The position numbers and the translations under genes are program-made. Positions 2,406-51,857 of a stretch of 64,000 nt of DNA are shown here, piece by piece. Within the stretch, counting starts at the first letter, position 1. Each line of letters begins with the position of its first letter. Source of the DNA: Minisyncoccota bacterium. Lineage in GTDB: Bacteria; Patescibacteriota; Minisyncoccia; Phycocordibacterales; UBA9973. The notes below the pieces were generated by a model, which was not told the origin of the DNA, made no database searches, and worked only from the letters and a program-made list of their open reading frames with translations. The stretch is from the NCBI GenBank assembly GCA_041674285.1, contig JBAYVZ010000005.1, positions 5,176 through 69,175 on the forward strand, in the 5' to 3' direction.

Positions 2406-3320
2406 ATGGAAAAGCTTTGGCCAATCACATTAACGAGGAAAATATCTGATATACACTGCGGTGGTTTCACCATGGCAGAGGAAGAGAGTCTCGGCTTCAA
2501 AGCAGGTGAATTATTTGAGGCACCGAATGAGCTTTTTGAACTAGTGACATTTCACAAGAAAAATCTTTCAACAAATTTACATAAATACAAAGAGGTAATA
2601 ATAAAAAATAACGATTACACCGAGGTCAGACCTGGGGTTTTTGCTCATGCAGGTGCAGTTATAGATGAGCAAGTGGTCTTTAATACAAAAAATGGCTTGG
2701 TCATAGTAGAAAAAGGGGCGCATATAAATCCATTTAATTATATAGCTGGGCCAGTACGTATAGACGAGAGTGCGACAATTAACCCGCATTCAAATATTTC
2801 AAATTCTTATATAGGTAAATACTGCAAAGTGGGAGGTGAAGTCTCAAATTCTATAATAGAGTCATACAGCAACAAAGGTCATCATGGATACCTGGGTGAT
2901 AGTTATGTAGGCTCATGGGTAAATATCGGTGGGGGCGCGTCAACATCAAATCTTAAAAATACATACGGAAAGATAAAGCTAGGTGGGGTAGAGACCGGGG
3001 AGCAATTCCTAGGATCAGTCATCGCCGACCATGCAAAAATAGCCATAAATGTATCTATATATACAGGAAAAGTAATCGGCGTGGCCGCTCACGTATATGA
3101 CACAGTCACAATAGATGTGCCCTCATTTACAAATTATATTTCAAAAGAAAATATGACTATTTTACCCGTTGATATAGCAGTAAAAATAGCAGGACGAATG
3201 CAAGAACGTCGGGGTATAAATACTATAGAGGAGGACAAAGCTATGCTATCATATGCTTATAATGCCACCGAAGGTGAACGAAAGAGTGCTGGCGTTACAG
3301 AAGGTAAATTAGCATTTTAA
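2406..3320 (+). CDS. left-handed beta-helix (hexapeptide-repeat) transferase-like protein
   Basis: Repeated [LIV]-G-x4 hexapeptide pattern (IGKYCKVGGEVSNSIIESYSNKGHHGYLGDSYVGSWVNIGGGASTSN). The start codon is uncertain. Confidence 0.55.
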   Translation: MEKLWPITLTRKISDIHCGGFTMAEEESLGFKAGELFEAPNELFELVTFHKKNLSTNLHKYKEVIIKNNDYTEVRPGVFAHAGAVIDEQVVFNTKNGLVIVEKGAHINPFNYIAGPVRIDESATINPHSNISNSYIGKYCKVGGEVSNSIIESYSNKGHHGYLGDSYVGSWVNIGGGASTSNLKNTYGKIKLGGVETGEQFLGSVIADHAKIAINVSIYTGKVIGVAAHVYDTVTIDVPSFTNYISKENMTILPVDIAVKIAGRMQERRGINTIEEDKAMLSYAYNATEGERKSAGVTEGKLAF

Positions 3321-3324
3321 ACCA

Positions 3325-3459
3325 AAAAATTGCAAATTTTTTCTTCGCATATCTTTTCTAGGGTACACAAATTTTTTGCTAAAAATTTGTGAGAGTCTAG
3401 CGCCGGTCGCGCTGTAGAAGCCCCTAAAAAAGATAAGCGTGCGACAATTTGCAATTTTT
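3325..3459 (+). repeat. palindromic intergenic element (family 2), copy A
   Basis: TTCTTCGCATATCTTTTCTAGGG...CCCCTAAAAAAGATAAGCGTGCGAC with inner hairpins GTAAATTTTT/AAAAATTTAC-like and a GC-rich hairpin. Outer arms AAAAATTGCAAATT / AATTTGCAATTTTT. Ends 10 nt before the tdh ATG. Confidence 0.8.
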
Positions 3460-3468
3460 AATAAAACT

Positions 3469-4416
3469 ATGTCAAAAATTTTAATTATTGGGGCGTGCGG
3501 TCAGATAGGGGTAGAGCTTACTTTGGCCCTACGAAAGATTCATGGTAATGAAAATGTAATAGCATCTGATATCCGTGGAGAGCATGCCATGCTCGCAGGT
3601 ACTGGACCATATTACACACTAGATGCTACTGACGCAGAGGGGACTCGAGCGATAGTAGAAAAAGAAGGAGTCACAGATATATACTTACTCGCTGCATTAC
3701 TATCTGCAACAGGGGAGAAGAATCCAAAGCTATGCTGGGATTTGAACATGAATAGTCTCAGACAAATTCTAGATCTAGGGGTAGAAAAGAAATTAAAAAT
3801 CTTTTGGCCTAGCTCTATCGCAGTATTCGGACCGACAACACCTAGAGAAAATACACAACTTCACACTATCATCGAGCCTACTACTATGTACGGAGTGACA
3901 AAGTACGCAGGTGAGATGCTCTGCCAATACTATGCAAATAAATTCGGACTAGATGTCCGCTCTGTGCGATACCCGGGCCTCATCAGCTGGAAGAGTGAAC
4001 CAGGTGGTGGAACTACAGACTATGCAGTAGAGATATTTTATGAAGCTATCAAGAATAAAAAATATTCTTGCTTCCTCTCAGAAAATACTTATCTACCGAT
4101 GATGTATATGGATGATGCGATCCGTGCGACGATCGAGCTGATGCAGGCGCCACTTGAAAATATAAAGACTCGAATGTCATACAACTTATCTGCAATTAGC
4201 TTTTCTCCTACTGAGATAGCAGGTGAATTGAAAAAGCACATGCCAGAATTTGAGATATCTTATGCTCCGGATCACCGCCAAGCTATCGCCAACTCTTGGC
4301 CTGCATCTATCGATGATTCTGATGCACGTGCAGACTGGGGATGGAAGCATGAATTTGATCTAGAAAAAATGACAGAGGTAATGCTTGAGAATTTAAAAAA
4401 TAAATTAGCCAAATAG
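3469..4416 (+). CDS. tdh: L-threonine 3-dehydrogenase, extended-SDR (UDP-galactose-4-epimerase-like) type
   Basis: MSKILIIGACGQIG NAD-binding motif, NVIASDIR and a YGVTK (YxxxK) catalytic motif. Adjacent to kbl. The track ORF from GTG 3439 lies inside repeat A, so the ATG at 3469 is preferred. Confidence 0.72.
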   Translation: MSKILIIGACGQIGVELTLALRKIHGNENVIASDIRGEHAMLAGTGPYYTLDATDAEGTRAIVEKEGVTDIYLLAALLSATGEKNPKLCWDLNMNSLRQILDLGVEKKLKIFWPSSIAVFGPTTPRENTQLHTIIEPTTMYGVTKYAGEMLCQYYANKFGLDVRSVRYPGLISWKSEPGGGTTDYAVEIFYEAIKNKKYSCFLSENTYLPMMYMDDAIRATIELMQAPLENIKTRMSYNLSAISFSPTEIAGELKKHMPEFEISYAPDHRQAIANSWPASIDDSDARADWGWKHEFDLEKMTEVMLENLKNKLAK

Positions 4417-4420
4417 ATAC

Positions 4421-4546
4421 TATAAATTCGTCGCACGTGTATCTTTTTTAAGGGCTTCTGCAGCGCGACTGGCGCGAAGCCTGAGTAAATTTTTAGCAAA
4501 AAATTTACGTACCTTAAAAAAGATATACGAAGAAAGAATTTATAAA
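4421..4546 (-). repeat. palindromic intergenic element (family 2), copy B (inverted relative to A and C)
   Basis: Its reverse complement aligns almost base for base with copy C (…CTTCGTATATCTTTTTTAAGGTACGTAAATTTTTTGCTAAAAATTTACTCAGGCTTCGCGCCAGTCGCGCTGCAGAAGCCC…). Ends 9 nt before the kbl ATG. Confidence 0.8.
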
Positions 4547-4554
4547 TTATTCAT

Positions 4555-5763
4555 ATGTACACAAAAAAATTTACAGAGTCACTCTCTCTTGATTTGAAAA
4601 ATATCGAAGAGAGTGGAAAGTTCAAAAAAGAAAAGATGATCGAGAGAGTTCAAGGTTCTCATATCAAGATAGGGGAGCAGGATTTTATCATGTACGCCTC
4701 AAACAATTATCTCGGACTAGCAGGTAGTAAATTCTCAACAGATGCAAACAAAGAGGGATTGGAGAAATACGGTTTTGGTATGGCATCGGTCAGATTCCTA
4801 TCCGGCACTCAGACTATACATAGACAACTAGAGGAGAGGATAGCAAAATTCATCGGCACAGAAGATGCGATCATATATTCTACAGGATTCATGGCCAACC
4901 TTGGATTGTTTGCTACGATAATAAATGAACCTCGTGGAAGTGAAGCTCCCTACAAAGATGTTATATATAGCGATGCAAACAATCATGCTTCAATCATCGA
5001 TGCATTCAAGCTCTGCAAAAAAGAAAATCTAGACAAGAGAATCTACAAGGGTGGGGACCTAGCGATGCTTGAGCAATTCCTGTCAGAAGATAAAGATAAA
5101 AATTACAGAACAAAGATTATCGCTACGGACGGGATATTCAGCATGGAGGGGAATTCTGCTGATTTGAAAAAGCTTGTAGATCTAGCTGAAAAGTACGAGG
5201 CCCTACTATTTGTAGACGACGCACACGGTATAGGAGTGATGGGTGATCTCGGAAGAGGTACACCAGAGAGCTGTGATGCACTCGGGAAAGTGGACATCGT
5301 ATCTGGTACATTTGGCAAGGCGCTCGGTGGAGCAGTCGGTGGGTATATAGGAGGTAGTAGAGAGCTCGTAGAATATCTGCGACAAAAATCTCGCACATAC
5401 CTATTCTCAAATGCGATGCCAGCATCGATAGCATACACGGGGATAAAGACACTTGACCTACTAGAGAGCGATGATACACCAATCAAAAAAGTAAAAGAAA
5501 ATGCATTATACTTCAGACAGAAACTCGAAGAGAACAATCTGCCGACACTGCACGGCAATCATGCTATCGTCCCACTGATGATAGGTGATGCGAACAAAGC
5601 AGCCGAGATGTCTAGAAAACTTTTTGATGATGGTATCTATGCAGTCTCACTATCATTCCCAGTAGTACCAGAGGGCGAAGCACGAATCAGATTCCAACTT
5701 TCTGCACTACATACAAAAGAGGACATAGACGAGACAATAGAAAAAATAAAGAAACTATACTAA
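4555..5763 (+). CDS. kbl: glycine C-acetyltransferase (2-amino-3-ketobutyrate CoA ligase)
   Basis: Alpha-oxoamine synthase pattern with PLP-lysine motif SGTFGKALGG and DDAHG. Paired with tdh. Confidence 0.85.
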   Translation: MYTKKFTESLSLDLKNIEESGKFKKEKMIERVQGSHIKIGEQDFIMYASNNYLGLAGSKFSTDANKEGLEKYGFGMASVRFLSGTQTIHRQLEERIAKFIGTEDAIIYSTGFMANLGLFATIINEPRGSEAPYKDVIYSDANNHASIIDAFKLCKKENLDKRIYKGGDLAMLEQFLSEDKDKNYRTKIIATDGIFSMEGNSADLKKLVDLAEKYEALLFVDDAHGIGVMGDLGRGTPESCDALGKVDIVSGTFGKALGGAVGGYIGGSRELVEYLRQKSRTYLFSNAMPASIAYTGIKTLDLLESDDTPIKKVKENALYFRQKLEENNLPTLHGNHAIVPLMIGDANKAAEMSRKLFDDGIYAVSLSFPVVPEGEARIRFQLSALHTKEDIDETIEKIKKLY

Positions 5764-5767
5764 AAAA

Positions 5768-5793
5768 ATAAAAGCCACAATTGTGGCTTTTAT
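5768..5793. terminator. bidirectional hairpin terminator between kbl and glmS
   Basis: ATAAAAGCCACAA/TTGTGGCTTTTAT palindrome flanked by A and T runs, between convergent genes. Confidence 0.7.
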
Positions 5794-5797
5794 TTTT

Positions 5798-7633
5798 TTA
5801 TTCTACTGTTACGCTCTTTGCTAAATTACGAGGCTTGTCTACATCTGCTCCACGTAGTACTGCCGTATGATATGCCAGTAGCTGTAGTGGTATCACAGAT
5901 AGTATCGGTATCCACTCATCAGGAACATTTGGAATCTCGACAATGTGATCAAAAATATTTTTCAATTCTTCGTTGCCACTGCGTACTATACCGATAGTCA
6001 GCGCTCCACGAGCTTTGACCTCTTGGACATTTGATATTACTTTTTCAATCAATGCATTATTTGTAGCGACTACAATAACAGGGAAATCTTTTTCTACTAG
6101 TGCTATAGGACCATGCTTCATCTCTGCTGCTGGATAACCCTCAGCATGGATATAAGAAATCTCTTTTAATTTCAACGCCCCCTCGAGTGCGACAGGGAAT
6201 AGTACTCCGCGCCCCAGGAACAATGCATTATCTTTTTCTTTTAAAATCTCGGCGATCTTTTTAACCTTTCCTTCTTCTTTCAATACTTGCTCTACCTTGT
6301 CTCCGATAGTAGACAATTCTTGAACCAAGAATACATATTCATCATGGCCTAGAGTGTCGCGATCTTTTGCTAGTAGTAGAGAGAGTAGTGATAGTATCAC
6401 AGCCTGACCAGTAAAAGCTTTTGTCGATGCTACTCCGATCTCGGGACCGACGTGGATATATGAACCTGCGTCAGTGATACGTGCGATAGATGAGCCGACT
6501 ACATTTGATATACCATATGTCATAGCACCGGATTCACGAGCGATCTGTAGTGCAGCTAGTGTATCTGCTGTCTCTCCGGATTGTGATATAGCTATTACGA
6601 TATCGTCTTTGTAAATTATCGGATTGCGATAACGGAACTCTGATGCATACTCTACTTCTACTGGAATCCTAGCTAGAGTCTCTATCAGATATTCACCGAC
6701 GAGCCCTGCGATCCAAGATGTGCCACAAGCAGTGATGATGATCCTCTTTGCATTTTTAAATTTATCAGCCATCTCTTCTATTCCACGTAGATGCACAGTA
6801 TTATCGGGCAGTATGTGGCCACGGAGTGCGTCGTGTATAGTACGAGCCTGCTCAAAAATTTCTTTTTGCATATAGTGATCGTATCCACCTTTTTCCAGCA
6901 TCTCAGCTTCGATATTCAGCTCCTCTATGAATGGAGTATGAGCTACACCATCGATAGACTTTACATAGAATTCACCATTACGCATTACTTTTGCCATATG
7001 ACCATCTTCTAGGTAGATCACACTCTTTGTGTACTCTACGATAGGGGACGCATCCGAAGCGATAAAAAATTCTTTTTCTCCGATGCCGATCACGAGTGGG
7101 CTACCCTTGCGTGCTACGATCAATGTATCGGGATCTTTTTCGTCTAGCACTACGATCGCATAAGCTCCTACTACCTGAGATAGGGCCTCGCGAACAGCCT
7201 CTTCGGTACTTAGATTGTCCTTTATTTTTACTTTTTCTATCAGACGGGCAAGGACTTCTGTATCAGTGTCACTCTTGAAAGTATCTCCATCTTTGAGGAG
7301 GGCAGTCTTTAAAGTAAGATAATTTTCTATAATACCGTTATGTATCAAGGCTATAGACCCAGATTCTGAGAGGTGGGGGTGAGCATTGCGATCCTCTGGT
7401 GCACCATGGGTGGCCCAGCGAGTATGACCTATGCCTATATTCCCAGCAGGATTATGGTCTTTTGCATACTTAAAAAGCTCGGCAACCTTGCCTTTCTTCT
7501 TGAAAACATTCATTTTTCCATCTAGAAGTGCAACTCCAGCTGAATCATACCCTCTATATTCGAGCCTTTCTAAACCCTTTATAATAATGGGAAAGGCTTC
7601 TCTTTTTCCTATGTATCCGATTATTCCACACAT
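5798..7633 (-). CDS. glmS: glutamine--fructose-6-phosphate aminotransferase
   Basis: MCGIIGYIG Ntn-amidotransferase N-terminus (Cys must follow the initiator Met, so the start is trimmed from 7660), two SIS domains, C-terminal ...KPRNLAKSVTVE. Confidence 0.95.
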   Translation of the reverse strand: MCGIIGYIGKREAFPIIIKGLERLEYRGYDSAGVALLDGKMNVFKKKGKVAELFKYAKDHNPAGNIGIGHTRWATHGAPEDRNAHPHLSESGSIALIHNGIIENYLTLKTALLKDGDTFKSDTDTEVLARLIEKVKIKDNLSTEEAVREALSQVVGAYAIVVLDEKDPDTLIVARKGSPLVIGIGEKEFFIASDASPIVEYTKSVIYLEDGHMAKVMRNGEFYVKSIDGVAHTPFIEELNIEAEMLEKGGYDHYMQKEIFEQARTIHDALRGHILPDNTVHLRGIEEMADKFKNAKRIIITACGTSWIAGLVGEYLIETLARIPVEVEYASEFRYRNPIIYKDDIVIAISQSGETADTLAALQIARESGAMTYGISNVVGSSIARITDAGSYIHVGPEIGVASTKAFTGQAVILSLLSLLLAKDRDTLGHDEYVFLVQELSTIGDKVEQVLKEEGKVKKIAEILKEKDNALFLGRGVLFPVALEGALKLKEISYIHAEGYPAAEMKHGPIALVEKDFPVIVVATNNALIEKVISNVQEVKARGALTIGIVRSGNEELKNIFDHIVEIPNVPDEWIPILSVIPLQLLAYHTAVLRGADVDKPRNLAKSVTVE

Positions 7634-7785
7634 ATAATATAATAAGCGGGCCAAATCCATCTGCTTTGTTGTCGATTCCGTTTACTCCCGCAATGTAGAT
7701 AACTACATCTTGGTCATAATACTCATCGACGCCTCGCATCTGCATTCGTCCGGCTGATTATATGATTATACATTTAAACCATTTA

Positions 7786-7917
7786 TTTTAAAAATCCTTT
7801 CTTCGCATATCTTTTCTAGGGTACGTAAATTTTTTGCTAAAAATTTACTCAGGCTTCGCGCCAGTTGCGCTGTAGAAGCCCCTAAAAAAGATACGCGTGC
7901 GACAGATTTTGCAAAAT
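7786..7917 (+). repeat. palindromic intergenic element (family 2), copy C
   Basis: CTTCGCATATCTTTTCTAGGGTACGTAAATTTTTTGCTAAAAATTTACTCAGGCTTCGCGCCAGTTGCGCTGTAGAAGCCCCTAAAAAAGATACGCGTGCGAC. Near-identical to A and to rc(B). Confidence 0.8.
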
Positions 7918-7935
7918 GATAAAATATAAAGAAGG

Positions 7936-8054
7936 TCCCGTTAGAAGTCATATATGTCATTCAAGCTACGGAGACTGTTTAAATAAATTATTTATATTCG
8001 ATATTATTAGTTAAATTATGTACGATAATCTAAAGATTATCTACTTCTAACGGG
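7936..8054 (+). repeat. start-codon-abutting structured element (family 1), copy 2
   Basis: Arms CCCGTTAGAAGT (7937-7948) / ACTTCTAACGGG (8043-8054). Inner hairpin GATAATC-TAAA-GATTATC. ATG at 8055. Confidence 0.8.
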
Positions 8055-23251: not shown

Positions 23252-23257
23252 TATAAT
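23252..23257 (+). promoter_or_regulatory. -10 box TATAAT (TG immediately upstream)
   Basis: TGTATAAT at 23250-23257. The ATG of the copy-4 mini-ORF (23265) is 8 nt downstream. Confidence 0.5.
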
Positions 23258-23269
23258 AGAACCAATGTC

Positions 23270-23388
23270 TCCCGTTAGAGATTCGCTTGTTATATTTCTA
23301 ATTTGAGGTGATTTGCAAAATGAATGTCGTATTATTTACTATATATTAACAAAGGGCGGTAATGTAAACATTACCTATCTCTAACGGG
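23270..23388 (+). repeat. start-codon-abutting structured element (family 1), copy 4
   Basis: Arms TCCCGTTAGAGAT (23270-23282) / ATCTCTAACGGGA (23377-23389). Inner hairpin GGTAATGT-AAA-CATTACC. ATG at 23389. Confidence 0.85.
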
Positions 23389-25320
23389 ATGGATTATCTA
23401 AATACACTAAATGAAAAGCAGAAAGAAGCGGTCCTTCAGACAGAGGGGCCGCTTCTGATTGTAGCAGGGGCCGGAGCAGGAAAGACCAAGACTCTAACAC
23501 ATCGAATCGTACATATAGTACATGGTGGAGTGAAGCCAGAGAATATACTAGCAGTTACTTTTACCAATAAAGCCGCAAAAGAGATGAGAGAAAGAGTGAT
23601 AGGACTACTTTCACAGAGGGAAAACGGTGCCCCCGCTGGTGGACATAGTGGTTATCCATTTGTTTCTACATTTCACGCACTCGGAGTAAGAATTATAAAG
23701 GAGAATGCGCACTTACTAGGCCTGACAAAGCACTTTGTCATAGCAGATGACGATGACTGCATGAAGATTATCAAGGAATCTCTCAAGACCCGCGACATAG
23801 ACCCAAAGCAGTATGAGCCGAGAAAGATCAAGAGTATCATTTCTCGAGCAAAGGGGGATTTTATAAACATAGATAAATTCTCAAATGAAGTAAAATCAGG
23901 ATTTGAAAGTGTGGTCGCTACTATCTGGCGTGACTATGAAAGAACTCTTAAATCAGAAAAGGCTCTAGACTTTGATGACCTATTGATCGAGACTGTGATG
24001 ATTTTGAAAAAGTATCCAGAAGTAAAACTACACTATCAAAATCAATGGCAGTATATCCATGTGGATGAATATCAGGATACCAATGAGGTACAGTATGAGA
24101 TGGTAAAGCTACTCGTAGGACCCAGGGAGAATATCTGTGTAGTGGGTGATACAGATCAGAATATCTATAGTTGGCGCGGAGCAAATATAAAGAACATGCT
24201 TCATTTTGAAAAAGATTATCCGAAAACTGTGATTGTGATGCTCGAACAGAATTACCGATCCACAAAGAATATAATCGAGGCAGCAAACAATGTGATAAAT
24301 AAAAATGTATTCCGAGTGCCAAAGACGCTCTTCACAGAAAAGGAGACAGGGGAGGATATCACAATATACGAGGCCTTCGACGAGATATATGAGGGGCAGT
24401 ATGTAGCAAATCAGATCCATGAATTGCTCCGTGAAAATAAACCCGAAGATATAGCTATACTCTATCGTGCGAATTTCCAATCCCGCGTATTAGAGGAAGC
24501 GATGCTTTCAAAAAATATCCCATACCAAGTCCTCGGTACAAAGTTCTTTGACCGAAAAGAAATTAAAGATGTCCTATCTTATCTACGTGCAGCATTGAAT
24601 CGTGATAGTCTGTCAGACATCAAGAGGGTGATCAATACTCCCGCTCGAGGTATCGGAAAAGTGACTCTAGTAAAACTATTCTCCGGAGGAATCAATGACT
24701 TGCCAGCTAGTATGCAGATGAAGATCAGTAACTTCTACAATTTACTAGATGAGATCCATGAATACGCCATGGTGAACAAGCCAAGTGAAATAATAAAATT
24801 CATCATTGAGCGTAGTGGACTAGAAGAAGAACTTAAAAAGGGCACTAGCGATGACCTAGAGAGACTAGAAAACATGAAGGAACTAGTGACACTCGCCATC
24901 CGATACGATGGTTTCGATATCGAGGAGGGTATAGATAAAATACTCGAAGACGCAGCACTATCTAGTGATCAAGACAGCCTGATAAACAAGCCAAAACCAG
25001 GAGGAGTACGCCTGATGACTGTGCACGCATCCAAAGGCCTTGAATTCAAATACGTATTTATCACAGGCCTTGAAAAAGATTTATTCCCGCACTCACGCCC
25101 CGGTGGAGGCAAGAAGGAGGATAGCGAGGAGGAGCGCAGACTATTCTATGTAGCACTGACTCGCGCCGAGAAAAAGCTATATCTATGCTATGCATCACTA
25201 CGAACAATATTCGGTATGAAGCAGGTAAATACCCCTAGTGAATTCCTAGAAGACATACCATCACACCTAGTAGAGTATGATAGGGGTGGCGGAAATGGAG
25301 AAAGGATTGTGTATATTTAA
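23389..25320 (+). CDS. pcrA: UvrD/PcrA-family ATP-dependent DNA helicase
   Basis: Walker A AGAGAGKTKTLTHR, a DEYQDTN motif, and TVHASKGLEF and LFYVALTRA motifs. Confidence 0.9.
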   Translation: MDYLNTLNEKQKEAVLQTEGPLLIVAGAGAGKTKTLTHRIVHIVHGGVKPENILAVTFTNKAAKEMRERVIGLLSQRENGAPAGGHSGYPFVSTFHALGVRIIKENAHLLGLTKHFVIADDDDCMKIIKESLKTRDIDPKQYEPRKIKSIISRAKGDFINIDKFSNEVKSGFESVVATIWRDYERTLKSEKALDFDDLLIETVMILKKYPEVKLHYQNQWQYIHVDEYQDTNEVQYEMVKLLVGPRENICVVGDTDQNIYSWRGANIKNMLHFEKDYPKTVIVMLEQNYRSTKNIIEAANNVINKNVFRVPKTLFTEKETGEDITIYEAFDEIYEGQYVANQIHELLRENKPEDIAILYRANFQSRVLEEAMLSKNIPYQVLGTKFFDRKEIKDVLSYLRAALNRDSLSDIKRVINTPARGIGKVTLVKLFSGGINDLPASMQMKISNFYNLLDEIHEYAMVNKPSEIIKFIIERSGLEEELKKGTSDDLERLENMKELVTLAIRYDGFDIEEGIDKILEDAALSSDQDSLINKPKPGGVRLMTVHASKGLEFKYVFITGLEKDLFPHSRPGGGKKEDSEEERRLFYVALTRAEKKLYLCYASLRTIFGMKQVNTPSEFLEDIPSHLVEYDRGGGNGERIVYI

Positions 25321-25540
25321 CTGCTTCGTAGATTAATTCTCGGACTCAGCACGAATATTTTTCTGTTGAAAAATTTTTTCCTATGGTCTGCTATGCAACG
25401 ACCATTTCGCTTCACGAACCGGATGAAATGAAAAGAAGTTTTCATTTCATTACCCGCGCTCAAGAAAATAATATTCGTCAACTCATTTATTTTCTAAGCT
25501 CCTGCGCAAGACTTCGCTCGAGAACAAATCTACTTCGCAA
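25321..25540 (+). repeat. about 220-nt long imperfect palindrome (candidate structured RNA or element)
   Basis: Nested pairings: GTAGATT..TTCTCG / CGAGAA..AATCTAC, ACGAATATT-TTTCT / AGAAAATAATATTCGT, and an apical 12-bp hairpin ATGAAATGAAAA-GAAG-TTTTCATTTCAT. Begins at the base after the pcrA stop. Confidence 0.6.
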
Positions 25541-34690: not shown

Positions 34691-34701
34691 AAAATAGATG
34701 G

Positions 34702-34821
34702 ATCCCGTTAGAGATGTGTTGTTAATAAAATAAAATATAAGTTAAAATTAAGTATAAAATAATATTACATAATAAAAATTAATAAGATACGGAAATGTAA
34801 ACATTTCCTATCTCTAATGGG
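34702..34821 (+). repeat. start-codon-abutting structured element (family 1), copy 5
   Basis: Arms ATCCCGTTAGAGAT (34702-34715) / ATCTCTAATGGGAT (34810-34823, one G-U wobble). Inner hairpin GATACGGAAATGT-AAA-CATTTCCTATC. The upstream stop lies 11 nt before the arm. Confidence 0.85.
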
Positions 34822-35979
34822 ATGGACAAAACAGAACTACAAAAACAAATAGCAGAATACTTTTCAAAGCTACCACCAGAAGCTGCTGCTATTTTTAGTA
34901 GCATGGCCTGGATAGATCAGACAGAAGAAATAGGCAATAGGTATAATCTGACAGAGGACCAATTAAAAGCCCTAATAACAGAGACTAGCCTGGCTCTCCT
35001 AGGAGTCATACACTTGAATCAATATGAGGATATATTAATCCAAGAACTCGCTCTCCCTAAAGAAAAGATAGCACCCATGATATCTGAAATAGATAGGGAA
35101 GTATTCGCATCTATCCGCCCAGCCCTAGAAAATACATTTGAATCAAACATAGAGAACATAGCAAAAAACAAATACGGTGGAGCTCAGAATATGGACGACA
35201 GATTCAAAGGGTTGCCACCTGCTGTCCAAGAGGCTATAACAAATTCCAACTACAAAAAGAACCTATACAATATAGCCAGTAAGTACAAATTGAACATGCC
35301 GAGCATGAGCACCCTAGATGAAGTAACCACAAAAGTCATGCTAGGGATAATCCCCAGTGAAAACTACAAAAATGAACTGTCAGCAGGGGTCCAAGCTTCG
35401 CCAGAAAATATAGATCTCATAGTATCAGAAGTCAATGAACAGGTTTTTAAAAACATAAGGTCATTCCTAATTCAAAATACAAAAAGAGATGACGCTGAAA
35501 AAGAAAAAATAGAGATACCGATACCTCCATATAAGAAATCAAATATCCCGACACCCCCATACAAGAAAACAGAGCCATTCGTTCCAGTAAATTTACCAAT
35601 CGCAGAATTTGAAAAAAAAGAGACGGATGATGGCATGAAAATATCGGGGATAGAGATACTAGCAGACGAGAATACAGAAGAAAAAGTAGACGAAGAAAAA
35701 GTTACAATAAAAGAAGACAATATAATGGTAAAATCTGGGGTCTCGGTAGTAGAAGAGGGTAACAATCCCCAGGAATCACACATTATACCGAGCAAGGAAA
35801 CACAAAAATCAGTATTGTACGGTATAGAGAACCCCCAATCAACAAAATCAATACTAAATATGAAGCTCCAGGGAGCAACATCAAGTGGAGTATCCAAAAG
35901 CAATCAACCAATATCAAATATACCTCCACAAAACACAACAAAGTCAGTGATTCATGATCCATATCATGAGCAAATATAA
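34822..35979 (+). CDS. hypothetical protein of the T4SS-like locus
   Basis: 385 aa with a short internal repeat IPIPPYKKSNIPTPPYKKTEP. No recognised domain. Confidence 0.55.
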   Translation: MDKTELQKQIAEYFSKLPPEAAAIFSSMAWIDQTEEIGNRYNLTEDQLKALITETSLALLGVIHLNQYEDILIQELALPKEKIAPMISEIDREVFASIRPALENTFESNIENIAKNKYGGAQNMDDRFKGLPPAVQEAITNSNYKKNLYNIASKYKLNMPSMSTLDEVTTKVMLGIIPSENYKNELSAGVQASPENIDLIVSEVNEQVFKNIRSFLIQNTKRDDAEKEKIEIPIPPYKKSNIPTPPYKKTEPFVPVNLPIAEFEKKETDDGMKISGIEILADENTEEKVDEEKVTIKEDNIMVKSGVSVVEEGNNPQESHIIPSKETQKSVLYGIENPQSTKSILNMKLQGATSSGVSKSNQPISNIPPQNTTKSVIHDPYHEQI

Positions 35980-44807: not shown

Positions 44808-44924
44808 CCCATTAGAGATAGGAAATGCTTACATTTCCGTTTCTTTTTAATTTAAATTAATAAATACAACCTTATTTATAAGCAAACCTACATAAAAAAC
44901 ACAAACAACATATCTCTAACGGGA
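44808..44924 (-). repeat. start-codon-abutting structured element (family 1), copy 8
   Basis: Read in minus sense: arms TCCCGTTAGAGAT / ATCTCTAATGGG (G-U wobble). Inner hairpin ACGGAAATG-TAAG-CATTTCCT. The rnpA TAG stop (44916-44918) lies inside the 5' arm. Confidence 0.85.
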
Positions 44925-45251
44925 CAAGTATAATCCTGCTTTTTTAAATAAATAGACAATATTTTCAGATATTTGATCATTTTCAGCTTTTAAAGCCTCC
45001 TTTTTAAAGAAAAGAGCGCCGATAAAAGGCTTTGCCAGTAATGGGCCAGCCATACGATAACCCTTTCTCCTGAGAGAATTCCTTAAAACAGCTGTTTTTG
45101 CAACGCTTTTCGGGGCAACTACAGCAAAATGAACCACACCATCAGTGGAGGGTATATACCGGAAAGTAAAAAGAGGGCTTGAGACCATTTTTCCTTCTTT
45201 CATAATGGCTTCAAAAACCCCCTTATTAACACGATGCTTTTTGGAAAGCAT
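44916..45251 (-). CDS. rnpA: ribonuclease P protein component
   Basis: 111 aa basic protein (FAVVAPKSVAKTAVLRNSLRRKGYR), immediately downstream of rpmH. Confidence 0.85.
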   Translation of the reverse strand: MLSKKHRVNKGVFEAIMKEGKMVSSPLFTFRYIPSTDGVVHFAVVAPKSVAKTAVLRNSLRRKGYRMAGPLLAKPFIGALFFKKEALKAENDQISENIVYLFKKAGLYLSR

Positions 45252-45252
45252 G

Positions 45253-45393
45253 TTATTTCTTTATAGATACACTAGCGCGACCTTTTTGGCGTCGGCGGGC
45301 AGTGACCTTTCGGCCATTTTTTGTCTTTGTACGTACAAGAAAACCGTGTGTTTTAGCTCTTTTACGTTTGTTTGGTTGATATGTTTGAGACAT
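45253..45393 (-). CDS. rpmH: 50S ribosomal protein L34
   Basis: Below the ORF-track cutoff. Minus-strand translation gives [46 protein letters not shown]. The stop is 1 nt before the rnpA ATG. Confidence 0.9.
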
Positions 45394-45438
45394 AATGTCT
45401 AATATATACTATAATGGTGCATTATGCAACCCATAAAG

Positions 45439-45447
45439 TTATCCACA
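45439..45447 (+). promoter_or_regulatory. perfect DnaA box upstream of dnaA
   Basis: TTATCCACA at 45439-45447 in the rpmH-dnaA divergent spacer. Confidence 0.7.
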
Positions 45448-45515
45448 CGATATACACAGGATTGCACACAATTCAAACAGGACGATTATAAATCTTAACT
45501 AGTATAATAGGAACT

Positions 45516-46868
45516 ATGGTATCAGATACAAAAAAATTATGGGAAAGCTGTTTGGCGGAAATCGAATTATCCATTTCAAAAGCAAATTTTACAACCTGGT
45601 TTAAAAATACACAGATAGTAAAAGAAGAGGAGGGAGTACTATTTATAGGAGTACCAAATGAATTCGTAAAAGACTGGTTGAATAATAAATTTCACAAGCT
45701 AATCCTTAAAACTCTAATGAATTATGAGGATAGTGTACGCAATATAGAATACATAATCACAAAACACGAAGTAGTAAAACCAAAAACAGAAAATGAACAA
45801 GCCCCTATATCTATAAACAAAGAACTGCCACTAGCTGATCTCTATGTAAACAAGGACGACAACTTAAATCCTAAATATACATTCAATAATTTTATTGTTG
45901 GACCATTCAACGAGCTTGCATATGCAGTTTCCCAAGCTATCATCACCACACCAGGGGAAACATATAATCCATTCTTTGTATATGGAGGTACAGGTCTTGG
46001 TAAGACACATATGATCCAATCGATAGGGAATAGTATCAAGAATAAATTTCCAAATAAAAAGATTTATTATGTGAGTCTTGAAAAATTTGCTATTGACTAC
46101 ATAAACTCAATTCAAAACAAAAATCCAAATGGATTTAAAGAGAAGTATAGAAAATACGATGTGATAATTATGGATGACATCCAATTCATATCAGGAAAAG
46201 AAAAGACTCAAGAAGAATTATTCCATTTGTTCAATATATTCCACGAAAACAATAAGCAAATTGTTTTTTCTTCAGATAAACATCCAAACTTTATCCAAGG
46301 ATTAGAAGAACGTCTACAATCTAGATTCGCTTCTGGTATGACAGTACAGATAACAGAGCCTGACTATGAATCACGCGTAGCGATCATCAAAGCTAAGCTA
46401 CAGAAGACAAATATAATAGTGGATGAACCAGTCATCTCCTACCTTGCAGAGGTACTAGAGGGTAATATACGAGAATTGGAGGGTAGTTTAAATACAATCA
46501 TCTGCCAATCTCAACTCAAAGATAAATCACTCTCTTTAAATGAGACAAAAAATTTAATTAAAAATAATATCCGACCAAAGAAAAATGTAGCTATCAAAGA
46601 TATTATTAAAATAATTGCTGATTATTACAATATCCCCGAAGCTCACGTATATGAGAAGACCAGGAGAAAGGAGATAGTCCAAGCTCGCCAAGTAGCGATG
46701 TACCTACTCCGAGAAGATTTCAATATTTCATACCCACTAATAGGTCAAAAGTTTGGGGGTAGGGATCACACCACAGTCATACACTCACACCTCAAAATAA
46801 AAGAAGATTTAAAGACGAATCCAAGCCTACTCCAAGAGATAGAGAGGATCAGAATCATGTTCAAATAG
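45516..46868 (+). CDS. dnaA: chromosomal replication initiator protein DnaA
   Basis: 450 aa, Walker A GGTGLGKTH, a sensor region and a C-terminal DNA-binding helix RQVAMYLLRE. TATAAT (45503-45508) lies 7 nt before the ATG. Confidence 0.95.
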   Translation: MVSDTKKLWESCLAEIELSISKANFTTWFKNTQIVKEEEGVLFIGVPNEFVKDWLNNKFHKLILKTLMNYEDSVRNIEYIITKHEVVKPKTENEQAPISINKELPLADLYVNKDDNLNPKYTFNNFIVGPFNELAYAVSQAIITTPGETYNPFFVYGGTGLGKTHMIQSIGNSIKNKFPNKKIYYVSLEKFAIDYINSIQNKNPNGFKEKYRKYDVIIMDDIQFISGKEKTQEELFHLFNIFHENNKQIVFSSDKHPNFIQGLEERLQSRFASGMTVQITEPDYESRVAIIKAKLQKTNIIVDEPVISYLAEVLEGNIRELEGSLNTIICQSQLKDKSLSLNETKNLIKNNIRPKKNVAIKDIIKIIADYYNIPEAHVYEKTRRKEIVQARQVAMYLLREDFNISYPLIGQKFGGRDHTTVIHSHLKIKEDLKTNPSLLQEIERIRIMFK

Positions 46869-47092
46869 CTGTGGATAAAACTGTTAATAACTAGGGGGCT
46901 AGAATTTAACAAGATGTTCACAAAAACATAAACAAAACTAATCCACAGCAAAGTATACAGATGACATGTTTTATAAGAATTTTAAAAAAGAGATAAAAAG
47001 CTTACTTTATATAGTCGAAAAAAGTAATCCACATATCCACAGGAATAGTATTAGTAATAGAGTTTATTTAATAATTAATTAAGAAAGAATAT
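46869..47092. other. candidate oriC (DnaA-box cluster plus AT-rich tract)
   Basis: TGTGGATAA 46870-46878 (perfect, reverse orientation), TAATCCACA 46939-46947, TAATCCACA 47025-47033 and ATATCCACA 47033-47041. An AT-rich stretch lies at about 46965-47020. Confidence 0.65.
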
Positions 47093-48193
47093 ATGAAACT
47101 AGAATGTTCAATAGAAAAGATAAAAGATGCACTAATAACAGCAGAAAGAATTACAGGAAAGAACCTCACTCTTCCAGTACTAGGATCTGTACTTTGGGTA
47201 GCTTCAAATAAAGTTTTAAAACTTCGAGCTACAAATTTAAACATTGGTATTGAGATTGAGATACCGGCAAAGATAGAGACTGAGGGTGTAGTGGCTGTGA
47301 AGGGTGATATTCTTTCTTCTTTGTTTTCTCTACTACACGGAGATTCTACTGTAAAGTTTGAATTAATTGATTCTAATTTTTCTGTTAAAACAAAATCAAA
47401 TAATATTTTATTAAATACAATTCCTTATGAAGACTTTCCAACTATTCCGATACTCTCCGGTGAAGAGATTACAGTACCCTCTGTAAAGCTCGTAGAGGGC
47501 CTCAAGGCGGTTTATTATAGCGCAGCGGTATCAGACATCAAACCAGAGATTGGAAGTGTCTACATCTACCCACAGGACGATATGCTGGTGTTCGTGGCGA
47601 CAGACTCTTTCCGTCTCGCAGAAAAGAAAGTTAAGATTAAAAAAGAACTTAATTTTGATGGAATATTATTACCTTTAAAAAATGCAACAGAGATAATTCG
47701 TATTTTAGATGGGGTGGATGATGATGTAAAAATAATCTTACACAAAAATCAGATATCTCTATCTGTGAATGGTATATATATCACATCTAGAGTTGTAGAT
47801 GGAACATTCCCAGATTACAAACAAATTATTCCAAGAGAATCAAAAACTCAAGCTACACTTCTCAAGCAAGATTTGTTGTATGCAATAAAAGTTTCAAATA
47901 TTTTATCTGATAAATTTAATCAAATAACATTTAATCTGAAACCTAATGAAAAAGTTTTTGAAGTTGATTCAAAAAATAATGATATAGGTGAGAACACTAC
48001 ACACATAGAAAGTTCTCTGTCTGGGGAAGAGGTGAGTGTAAATATAAATTATAAATACATTGTGGATTGTTTTCAGTCTATAAATGGCGATAGTGTGACA
48101 CTGGAATTCAATGGTAGTAATAGACCTATTATAATTCGTGTAGTAGGAGATTCATCTTTTATGTATCTCGTGATGCCTATGAACCGTCAGTAA
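47093..48193 (+). CDS. dnaN: DNA polymerase III beta sliding clamp
   Basis: 366 aa with three-domain clamp pattern and a C-terminal ...MYLVMPMNRQ. Follows dnaA. Confidence 0.93.
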   Translation: MKLECSIEKIKDALITAERITGKNLTLPVLGSVLWVASNKVLKLRATNLNIGIEIEIPAKIETEGVVAVKGDILSSLFSLLHGDSTVKFELIDSNFSVKTKSNNILLNTIPYEDFPTIPILSGEEITVPSVKLVEGLKAVYYSAAVSDIKPEIGSVYIYPQDDMLVFVATDSFRLAEKKVKIKKELNFDGILLPLKNATEIIRILDGVDDDVKIILHKNQISLSVNGIYITSRVVDGTFPDYKQIIPRESKTQATLLKQDLLYAIKVSNILSDKFNQITFNLKPNEKVFEVDSKNNDIGENTTHIESSLSGEEVSVNINYKYIVDCFQSINGDSVTLEFNGSNRPIIIRVVGDSSFMYLVMPMNRQ

Positions 48194-51005: not shown

Positions 51006-51077
51006 AAGTTAATAATAACATACTATATTCTATAAATATGGCAATTGTGGGATAATTTAATTATGAGAAAAAAATCA

Positions 51078-51192
51078 TCAACCCCGTCCTCTGATTACAG
51101 AGTCCACCCCTCAAGAGGGGAATTAAATATGAATACAAAAAATACATCCACCCCACCTTTTGATTACAAAAGGCACCCCTCAAGAGGGGAAT
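51078..51192 (+). repeat. two direct family-3 units
   Basis: TCAACCCCGTCCTCTGATTACAGAGTCCACCCCTCAAGAGGGGAAT (51078-51123) and TCCACCCCACCTTTTGATTACAAAAGGCACCCCTCAAGAGGGGAAT (51147-51192). Confidence 0.8.
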
Positions 51193-51599
51193 TTTGGGAT
51201 ACAGGTTCTTTGTATCCATATTGGGAAATTCCTAAAAATAAACTTTTAATCTCACGAGCAAAAGAATTAAGAAAAGCTGGCAATTTAGCGGAAGTTATTT
51301 TTTGGAAAACTTTCAATGATAAAAATAAAATAGGTTTTGATATTGATCGGCAAGTTATAGTAGGGAACTATATTGTCGATTTTTTTATCCCGGAATTGGG
51401 TTTAGTTTTTGAAATAGACGGATCGAGTCACGATAATAAAATAGATTATGATGCCGAACGGGATGCATTTATGAATGACCTTGGATTGTTTGTTATTCGA
51501 ATTCCTGATGTAGATGTGAAGAAAAATATGGAAAGTGTCTATAATTTTGTAACTAATATAATTTTAGAAAGAACAAATAAACTCAAGGGTTTTTCTTAG
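51129..51599 (+). CDS. DUF559 (Vsr-like) endonuclease-domain protein
   Basis: C-terminal ...AEVIFWKTFNDKNKIGFDIDRQVIVGNYIVDFFIPELGLVFEIDGSSHD...RDAFMNDLGLFVIRIP matches the DUF559 pattern. The true start is uncertain because the 5' end overlaps repeat DNA. Confidence 0.65.
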   Translation: MNTKNTSTPPFDYKRHPSRGEFWDTGSLYPYWEIPKNKLLISRAKELRKAGNLAEVIFWKTFNDKNKIGFDIDRQVIVGNYIVDFFIPELGLVFEIDGSSHDNKIDYDAERDAFMNDLGLFVIRIPDVDVKKNMESVYNFVTNIILERTNKLKGFS

Positions 51600-51719: not shown

Positions 51720-51780
51720 TTGGTTCATAACTCCAATCAAAATACCCACGACATATGTCTGAAAACATTAATTTTTTAAA

Positions 51781-51826
51781 ATTCCCCTCTTGAGGGGTGG
51801 CATTTGTACTCAAATGACGGGGTGGA
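51781..51826 (-). repeat. family-3 unit in inverted orientation
   Basis: ATTCCCCTCTTGAGGGGTGGCATTTGTACTCAAATGACGGGGTGGA is the reverse complement of the unit consensus. Confidence 0.8.
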
Positions 51827-51857
51827 TGTATTGAATTTGGTGTGGTAAAGTATAAAT

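Follow-up and report, generated by a model that had tools for sequence, protein, structure and literature searches.

Small structured repeats between genes are a known kind of bacterial element. REPs are G+C-rich hairpins of 20-40 nt that carry a conserved 5' tetranucleotide and have a cognate RAYT transposase, and Hulton et al. reportedly described a conserved central region in ERIC in 1991. ERIC elements are imperfect palindromes of ~127 bp found in transcribed intergenic regions in either orientation, with terminal inverted repeats, target duplications and a flanking TA motif, and long RNA hairpins of this kind at gene ends can alter the fate of the mRNA (PMC3184786). [quoted passage not shown] Here we describe repeats from a 64,000-nt stretch of a Minisyncoccota bacterium (contig JBAYVZ010000005.1, positions 5,176 to 69,175; hereafter the window), in which four copies, A to D, and a more diverged fifth copy occupy intergenic spacers (Table 1). 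With a probability of roughly 0.5, we regard them as an apparently undescribed family of structured palindromic intergenic repeats that would act as boundary hairpins of the REP/ERIC/SPRITE kind and would spread and be renewed by recombination between copies.

The element resembles ERIC in its length, in being an imperfect palindrome present in either orientation and in its conserved centre. Nevertheless, the terminal repeats, target duplications and TA motif of ERIC were not seen in our element, which comes from another taxon and has no known sequence relation to ERIC, and its centre is a three-way junction with two distinct hairpins. With the REP/SPRITE-type repeats it shares an outer stem laid out in A-tracts and T-tracts like the plain terminators of this genome, and it takes the place of a terminator beside the gene for a T2SSE (type II/IV secretion) ATPase. 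In contrast to REPs, it is 105-150 nt long (~125 nt typically), A/T-rich and branched at the tip, and no RAYT gene was found in the window. Correia elements and MITEs are similar in size, in being non-coding, in their long stem-loop and in their polymorphic presence; here, however, conservation is highest at the centre and decays outward, and there is no duplication signal. The kind of element is thus known, and what is unusual is the combination of a conserved branched centre, variable arms and selection in very small genomes.

Copies in the window and distribution of the family

The initial annotation had recognised A, B and C as palindromes around tdh and D as a diverged relative upstream of comM, and the four copies do lie at those positions, as borne out by direct reading, a four-way alignment and a repeat search. 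We define the sense strand as the one that reads 5' arm, GGGG, a G+C hairpin (P2), an A/T hairpin with the loop AGCA (P3), CGUACCC and 3' arm; the strands of the copies in Table 1 are given accordingly. In the repeat search, B and C are inverted repeats over 126 nt (90% complementary), which bears out the near-identity noticed earlier between C and the reverse complement of B. A and C are direct repeats over 76 nt (82%) and 47 nt (94%), and A and B are inverted over 65 nt (85%) and 51 nt (86%). The identity matrix places A, B and C at 78-89% likeness within the window, C being the nearest relative of A (81% over the model span). Four instances of the 28-nt core AAATTYTTAGCAAARAATTTNCGTACCC are present in the window against 0.00 expected, with up to 3 mismatches allowed and no more than 1 needed. 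D does belong with the others (105 bits with the covariance model described below), albeit solely in the orientation of B: it shares TAGGGG and AAATTYTTAGCAAARAATTTNCGTACCC with the family in that orientation, is inverted relative to A and C and gives no alignment in theirs. The likeness is not limited to A/T runs, as the G+C hairpin and both arms align as well.

The fifth copy, at 25328-25533, belongs to a second subfamily. Both of its ends align to L056:1521-1643 and L021:3059-3183 (L numbers denote loci from related genomes), and it is the positional equivalent of the uvrD-proximal copy in L021, with the same uvrD-ksgA site and the same orientation. It retains the arms, the P2 base, P3 and the junction, and the tip of P2 has grown by ~105 nt; because of this insertion the covariance model misses the copy. 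By sequence, the five copies constitute a single family.

A covariance model (R1) built from the family scores 77-129 bits on the sense strand and ~20 bits on the antisense strand; it confirms the loci found with an exact 21-nt core and adds copies without the exact core. Altogether, ~75 distinct copies were found in ~70 loci, all of them from Patescibacteria and Paceibacteria/Nomurabacteria-like. When one genome per species was searched for the exact core, 21 loci were obtained, all labelled Patescibacteria (Nomura-, Taylor-, Adler- or Paceibacteria), with 1-4 matches per representative genome, and metagenomes yielded 44 loci. In the true matches, the core is nearly invariant and the outer arms are very different between loci yet complementary; the second subfamily keeps the outer arms and the architecture with a different core sequence. 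These searches show that the family is confined to Patescibacteria but wide within them, and the repeats are not restricted to the region in which they were first noticed.

No match to Rfam 15 was found in the whole window at gathering thresholds. At E values up to 10, the sole model overlapping an element in window positions 3200-8100 was that of a plant microRNA precursor (25.6 bits against a threshold of 139.7), and at E values up to 5, no match overlapped an element in 16 further loci. Full-text literature searches turned up no paper that describes repeats of this kind in Patescibacteria or Parcubacteria. A phage or plasmid vector was considered and rejected: the six IMG/VR matches to the 21-nt core all fall within one conserved open reading frame (ORF) and none matches the model, and we take them as a coincidence of coding sequence.

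Fold, covariation and strand asymmetry

The outer stem, P1, is long and pairs an A-rich 5' arm with a T-rich 3' arm, the sequence of which depends on the site while complementarity is kept. It is topped by a three-way junction from which P2 and P3 emerge, followed by CGUACCC. P3 is nearly invariant (AAAUUUUU-AGCA-AAAAAUUU). As read from the alignment, P2 has a lower stem of 3-5 bp and an upper stem of 4 bp, separated by an internal loop in which each strand carries GA, and it is closed by a loop of the GNCG type. Its tip accepts both replacement, as in L069, and the expansion at 25328-25533. Conservation peaks at the centre and decays outward, the termini being the least conserved part. Two described motifs were compared with this centre and rejected. 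The junction strands and the GA/GA loop, set by eye against the hammerhead core (CUGANGA...GAAA), fit neither in order nor in sequence, and the 5' bulge in P2 ranges from 0 to 5 nt between subfamilies, so that no consistent K-turn is formed.

Folding reproduced the outer stem, the A/T hairpin and the G+C hairpin that had been drawn on paper. The RNA folds of the copies range from -38.9 to -52.6 kcal/mol, with z values of -4.4 to -8.7 against dinucleotide shuffles (copy A, minus strand, -52.6 kcal/mol and z -8.7; copy B, -48.6 kcal/mol and z -7.7), and 25328-25533 reaches -62.1 kcal/mol with a z of about -4.5 against mononucleotide shuffles. DNA folds are similar to the RNA folds (copy D, DNA z -6.5). 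RNAalifold on 62 distinct copies gave 37 pairs, 35 of which have compensatory changes; 90.9% of the paired cells are occupied by pairs against 69.4% in shuffles, and the covariation score is 0.572 against 0.181 when shuffled and at most 0.164 with partners slid. The comparison of copies thereby shows covariation support for the three-way-junction fold.

The two strands are not equivalent. G.U pairs are more numerous than A.C mismatches on the sense strand, by 117 to 37, or by 82 to 37 without one conserved U.G pair present in 35/62 copies, and the excess holds in every gene arrangement; where both neighbouring genes run antisense to the element, the counts are 24 against 11 (17 against 11 without the conserved U.G). 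As many of the counts are inherited within subfamilies, they are not independent and are inflated by shared descent, and they are therefore suggestive only of a sense strand that folds as RNA or single-stranded DNA.

This asymmetry bears on the idea that the element works as a site in DNA, either through cruciform extrusion or as an A/T palindrome bound in duplex form by a dimeric protein, for example a factor of the nucleoid, of recombination or of uptake. Such a function would not depend on orientation; P3 is a perfect DNA palindrome of A-tracts and T-tracts, folding is as significant for the DNA as for the RNA, and the interiors of the copies are homogenised by recombination (see below). 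Nevertheless, G.U is tolerated asymmetrically, on one strand, and the conserved U.G, like the other G.U pairs, would be an A.C mismatch on the other strand of a cruciform. In addition, P2 and the junction are conserved though not palindromic, and covariation reaches pairs that a duplex-binding protein does not require. We thus consider a DNA-level site improbable.

The same data have more to offer to a second alternative, in which the copies are genes for free-standing small non-coding RNAs. The sense strand would be transcribed from its own promoter, P1 would be a processing or terminator stem, and the junction, protein-binding or catalytic, would be the functional part. Conservation is indeed strand-specific (~100 bits sense against ~20 antisense), G.U exceeds A.C in all gene contexts, all helices covary, the orientation is independent of the neighbours as in tRNA genes, and the replaceable and expandable tip of P2 recalls the peripheral helices of structured RNAs. 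However, no -10-like box was found at a fixed upstream distance in either orientation, and an own promoter was rejected for this lack of positional signal; many copies lie 0-10 nt from a neighbouring stop or start codon, which leaves no room for a promoter. Together with the lack of an Rfam family match and the loss of copies at orthologous sites among close relatives, these observations make small-RNA genes unlikely.

Site occupancy, turnover and mobility

The presence of the element is patchy among relatives with 82-98% GlmS identity, and empty sites were found for all of A, B, C and D. L001 (~92% nucleotide identity to the window) has C and D at the same sites and lacks A and B, a GNAT gene standing at the B site; C is likewise at its site in L002 and L003. 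L069 (92.8% nucleotide identity) carries B and C, and its A site holds a D-like copy in the opposite, sense orientation. In L073 (85% GlmS identity), only B is present, C is absent, and the A site is a 10-nt spacer, TTTTAA-TAAAAATATT-ATG. L072 (86%) has C only, D being absent. L074 (82%) has tdh and none of the four elements. L004 (84%) has no tdh, its hexapeptide-transferase gene and kbl being 15 nt apart, and C and D are absent as well.

Orthologous copies are strongly conserved. Between the window and L001, copy C is 95.6% and copy D 96.9% identical, arms included, against 68-86% at the four-fold degenerate sites of seven flanking genes (glmS 79%; dksA and comM 68-72%), and this difference shows purifying selection on the elements. 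Copy B differs from that of L069 by few substitutions only, except for a 22-nt stretch of P2 that is swapped for a different hairpin. In the identity matrix, B and C are 89% identical within the window and L073-B and L072-C are 83% identical, against 67% for B versus L073-B and 63% for C versus L072-C. The outermost arms are nevertheless common to a site (ATAAATTCG at B; CAAAATCTG or CAAAATTCG at C). Interiors homogenised per lineage inside site-specific outer arms thus point to old sites with gene conversion between copies, for which we infer that the palindromic arms supply the homology. Conversion guided by the arms could install the centre in either orientation, as at the A site, where the window has a C-like copy in antisense and L069 a D-like one in sense. 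These sequence comparisons show patchy occupancy and concerted evolution.

The initial annotation suggested that tdh, or tdh-kbl, had been mobilised as a composite unit by A and B, and this proposal fails on synteny. At the same hexapeptide-transferase/kbl locus, tdh is accompanied by no element in L001 and L074, by B only in L073 and by two elements of the same orientation in L069. The inverted pair of A and B is hence a peculiarity of this genome and does not define a mobile unit, and these repeats did not move tdh. The gene order in L001 is hexapeptide-transferase gene, tdh, GNAT gene and divergent kbl with spacers of 7-11 nt; kbl and the hexapeptide-transferase tail of the window are of the L004/L073 type, and L001 is the odd one.

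The suggestion that the elements are MITEs holds in a loose sense only. Their size, below the limit of about 200-400 bp, and their foldability suit a MITE, no ORF is conserved in them, and sites A to D are variably filled among six related loci. On the other hand, shared terminal inverted repeats are missing, as copies diverge in their outermost arms and are best conserved at the centre, and neither a parent insertion sequence nor a transposase was found in the window. Target-site duplications were not detected beyond chance: in 70 copies the longest match between the flanks is 0-3 nt, distributed as with shuffled partners (the hairpin ends being estimated), and comparison of empty and filled A sites revealed no duplication. 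Other classes fared no better. REP/REPIN elements, which also form inverted doublets with conserved ends, differ in length, composition and conservation pattern, and no Y1 transposase domain (RAYT) occurs among the 50 ORFs of the window. A derivative of IS200/IS605, a group that inserts strand-specifically according to replication direction and has subterminal hairpins recognised by TnpA, does not agree with four copies that lie within 10 kb, all to one side of dnaA, and are oriented -,+,-,+; no TnpA/TnpB gene was found in the window, and the Rfam models of IS605-type RNAs do not match. Integron attC sites have the reverse pattern, with conserved R/L boxes at the base of an imperfect hairpin and a variable centre, and their cassettes share one orientation beside an integron integrase; here orientations are mixed and no integron integrase is adjacent.

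These results also bear on the view that the element is purely selfish, a non-autonomous MITE or derivative of a single-strand DNA transposon with no host role, the core being the recognition site of a transposase encoded elsewhere. Presence that varies among close relatives, the likeness of A, B and C within one genome, the tandem inverted pairs in five loci, the nested expansion and the invariably intergenic location would all suit such an element. Nevertheless, (i) its termini are unconserved and flanking direct repeats are not in excess, (ii) no transposase, reverse transcriptase or HUH nuclease is encoded by the 50 ORFs of the window, (iii) the alternating orientations on one side of dnaA are unlike those of strand-specific single-strand transposons, (iv) the copy number is low (5 in 64 kb), (v) orthologous copies have stayed 96-97% identical, arms included, where neutral sites are at about 77%, and (vi) no true copy was found in IMG/VR. 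A purely selfish nature is thus unlikely.

A further possibility, which we hold tentatively, is that the three-way junction is a new functional RNA module, protein-binding or catalytic, common to a whole class of bacteria of the candidate phyla radiation. Standing on a self-complementary stalk, it would spread from boundary to boundary by arm-guided gene conversion, and would be a 'mobile structured RNA' and not the remnant of a transposon. This reading is compatible with the strand asymmetry of the G.U pairs, with helices that all covary, with purifying selection, with the expandable P2 tip and with the lack of an Rfam match. Peripheral helices of structured RNAs, such as the extensions of RNase P and group I introns, offer a parallel in the conserved junction, the compensatory helices and the P2 that is replaced in L069 or expanded at 25328-25533. 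Those RNAs are, however, single-copy, essential and of known function, whereas the element is multi-copy and patchy and matches no Rfam family.

Gene boundaries and surrounding features

In all four gene arrangements, the copies nearly fill the intergenic spacers, and their ends come within ~0-20 nt of a stop or start codon. In the 52 copies with both neighbours defined, the neighbours relative to the sense strand are (+,+) in 22, (-,-) in 14, convergent (+,-) in 8 and divergent (-,+) in 8, and they are unrelated housekeeping genes (dnaK/dnaJ, rpsT, fusA, efp, ftsZ, tig/clpP, ruvB, lysS and ksgA). In the window, copy A is antisense to both flanking genes and ends 10 nt before the ATG of tdh (3469), and copy B is sense to tdh and kbl and ends 9 nt before the ATG of kbl (4555), the distances given in the initial annotation.

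Its proposal of structured 5' leaders was not borne out. A cis-regulatory, riboswitch-like leader that controls the downstream gene could be imagined for B, C and D, which point to the next gene (kbl, glmS and comM) and end 9-150 nt before it. Nevertheless, a downstream gene on the same strand is found for only 30 of the 52 copies, and mixed orientations combined with functionally unrelated neighbours rule out, in our view, a leader of the riboswitch type. Furthermore, the sense strand of C is directed at glmS from just upstream of the glmS TGTATAAT -10 box, and D stands between the own terminator of the dksA-type gene (12996-13025) and a promoter-like TTGAAT-17-TATAAT of comM (13167-13195), so that both copies lie outside the leaders. 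Control of this sort is thus highly improbable.

The arms may point to another role. A makes up 45% of the distal 5' arm and T 41% of the distal 3' arm, whereas the genome has 34% A and 27% T. This is the layout of the plain bidirectional terminators of the window, to which the model with filters off gives weak whole-model matches. At the T2SSE site, a plain terminator (AAAAAAACAATCCTAAT-AAA-ATTAGGATTGTTTTTTT) stands right after the stop codon in the window, and the element stands there in L007, L015 and L027. Insertion into existing terminator loops was rejected as a general rule: the T2SSE site would fit, but the empty A, C and D sites (L073, L074, L072 and L004) are short spacers free of hairpins. 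Five loci have two adjacent copies (Table 1), antisense then sense in 5/5, with the two subfamilies usually contributing one copy each.

By analogy with ERIC, REP and SPRITE, the element may be a boundary hairpin, i.e., a terminator, insulator or processing site, and it is most likely such a gene-boundary hairpin rather than a transposon that moves tdh; the 'insulator' mentioned in the initial annotation comes close to this. The element would be co-transcribed with its neighbours in whichever orientation, and the transcript would fold into a very stable hairpin exactly at the gene boundary. This hairpin would serve as a 3'-end, terminator or insulating/processing module, as reported for REP, ERIC and SPRITE, and the conserved junction might be a handle for a hypothetical protein partner. 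Colonisation of sites would be rare, and the interiors would then be overwritten via recombination or gene conversion between copies, with the arms as homology and with possible flips of orientation. Nothing points to cut-and-paste transposition.

Several points weigh against a boundary hairpin. Its termination, processing and even transcription are inferred from sequence. Intrinsic terminators combine a stable hairpin with a U-run right behind it, at the end of a transcription unit, and a simple terminator scan does not call the elements, because their stems and loops exceed the limits of the scan. Of the four main copies, C, between divergent genes, and D, after a canonical terminator, stand in places that need no terminator, and boundary function therefore cannot explain every copy. 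The excess of G.U is seen even where the flanking genes transcribe the antisense strand, which fits a sense-specific RNA or a single-stranded intermediate better than passive co-transcription. A generic hairpin role leaves the near-invariance of P3 and CGUACCC across distant genomes unexplained. Lastly, compensatory changes in long DNA palindromes can also arise by arm-to-arm template switching without selection on RNA.

Table 1. Positions of the repeat copies, their parts and nearby features (window coordinates unless a locus is named)
Feature	Position	Strand	Context	Support
Copy A	3325-3459	-	between hexapeptide-transferase gene and tdh	covariance model, 86.4 bits, E 2e-17
Copy B	4421-4546	+	between tdh and kbl	covariance model, 102.2 bits
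Copy C	7781-7917	-	between divergent PGI-like gene and glmS	covariance model, 98.5 bits
Copy D, diverged subfamily	13038-13158	+	dksA-type gene/comM spacer	covariance model, 105.1 bits
Fifth copy, second subfamily	25328-25533	-	uvrD/ksgA spacer	alignment of both ends
Copy B, P1 5' arm	4421-4453
Copy B, P2	4454-4480
Copy B, junction CTGA	4481-4484
Copy B, P3 (loop AGCA)	4485-4508
Copy B, junction GTA	4509-4511
Copy B, P1 3' arm	4512-4544
Adjacent pair	L019:34-303
Adjacent pair	L021:2937-3183
Adjacent pair	L034:7675-7928
Adjacent pair	L045:307-558
Adjacent pair	L056:1521-1794
Hexapeptide-repeat transferase gene	2406-3320
tdh (epimerase-type threonine dehydrogenase)	3469-4416
kbl	4555-5763
glmS	true start (MCGIIGY) near 7633	-
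Another repeat family, 123-nt member	7935-8057		ends TCCCGTTAGA...TCTAACGGGA
Other copies of that family	near 1780-1912, 11603-11751, 23255-23404, 34695-34837, 43562-43721, 44792-44924
Third repeat family	44476-44599, 51068-51193, 51763-51832		palindrome CACCCCTCAAGAGGGGAAT

Further ORFs near the copies encode a PGI-like SIS (sugar isomerase domain) protein, PNPase, a DksA-type zinc-finger protein and ComM, and the GlmS proteins most similar to that of the window are from assemblages of Patescibacteria and Candidatus Nomurabacteria. The remaining genes of the window include uvrD, ksgA, a conjugation-like cluster, jag-yidC-rnpA, dnaA-dnaN, ruvC, ruvB and the T2SSE ATPase gene. With jag-yidC-rnpA on the minus and dnaA-dnaN on the plus strand (43119-48190), the replication origin is likely near 45.3 kb; the cumulative GC skew has no turning point within the window. 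The 23 kb to the left of the origin (19883-43078) are all on the plus strand and encode PrgI-like and TraG/VirB4-like proteins and many large proteins without a Pfam match, possibly an integrated conjugative region.

At the tdh-kbl junction, L001:11897-14620 compared with window 3262-4760 has a 179-aa GNAT acetyltransferase between tdh and kbl. The first ~200 nt of its kbl allele are unalignable, its hexapeptide-transferase tail is shorter, and its tdh is 94% identical to that of the window. A 155-aa ORF occupies this junction in L074, on the opposite strand, and the junction looks like a hotspot for gene gain.

Two other repeat families were noticed. The 123-nt repeat next to copy C (7935-8057) is a clean insertion relative to L001, L002 and L003, in which the insertion point reads AAAGA|TGTTAAAA, and the last base of the insert contributes to restoring the PGI-like gene's ATG. 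The copies of the third family bracket an ORF (51063-51599) for a DUF559 protein with a Vsr-like endonuclease fold. At the C site, L073 (2300-2460) has an unrelated insert of ~130 nt with the palindrome CCTCTCCTTACCAAGGAGAGG and G/C-rich runs, which may represent yet another small repeat family.

In the window, L001 and L069, a glmS leader of ~125 nt (7634-7765, minus strand) separates the TGTATAAT box from the ATG; it is 98.6% identical between the window and L001. Rfam does not call a glmS ribozyme in this leader, which has a weak, sub-threshold match to RF02840 (Ref68/Lacto-3 RNA; 15.5 bits, E 0.19) running into AUGUGUGGA. The glmS ATG follows the box by 6-10 nt in L072, L073 and L004. A -10-like box only 5-7 nt before the ATG occurs in several genes, including comM (TATAAT-TATTTT-ATG, 13167-13204), glmS in relatives and PGI in L001, an observation that also takes in the stretch 7765-7792 of the window; this spacing suggests that the lineage commonly has leaderless mRNAs.

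The genomes of Patescibacteria are tiny and contain very little non-coding DNA, and an element kept across many of their genera under purifying selection is therefore unlikely to be junk. As far as the searchable literature shows, it would be the first dispersed structured repeat described for Patescibacteria. It would provide a handle on how these bacteria end or separate their transcripts, a marker of strain-level variation and a clean case of the concerted evolution of a palindrome without a transposase. If the junction is genuinely protein-binding or catalytic, the family would represent a new class of RNA.

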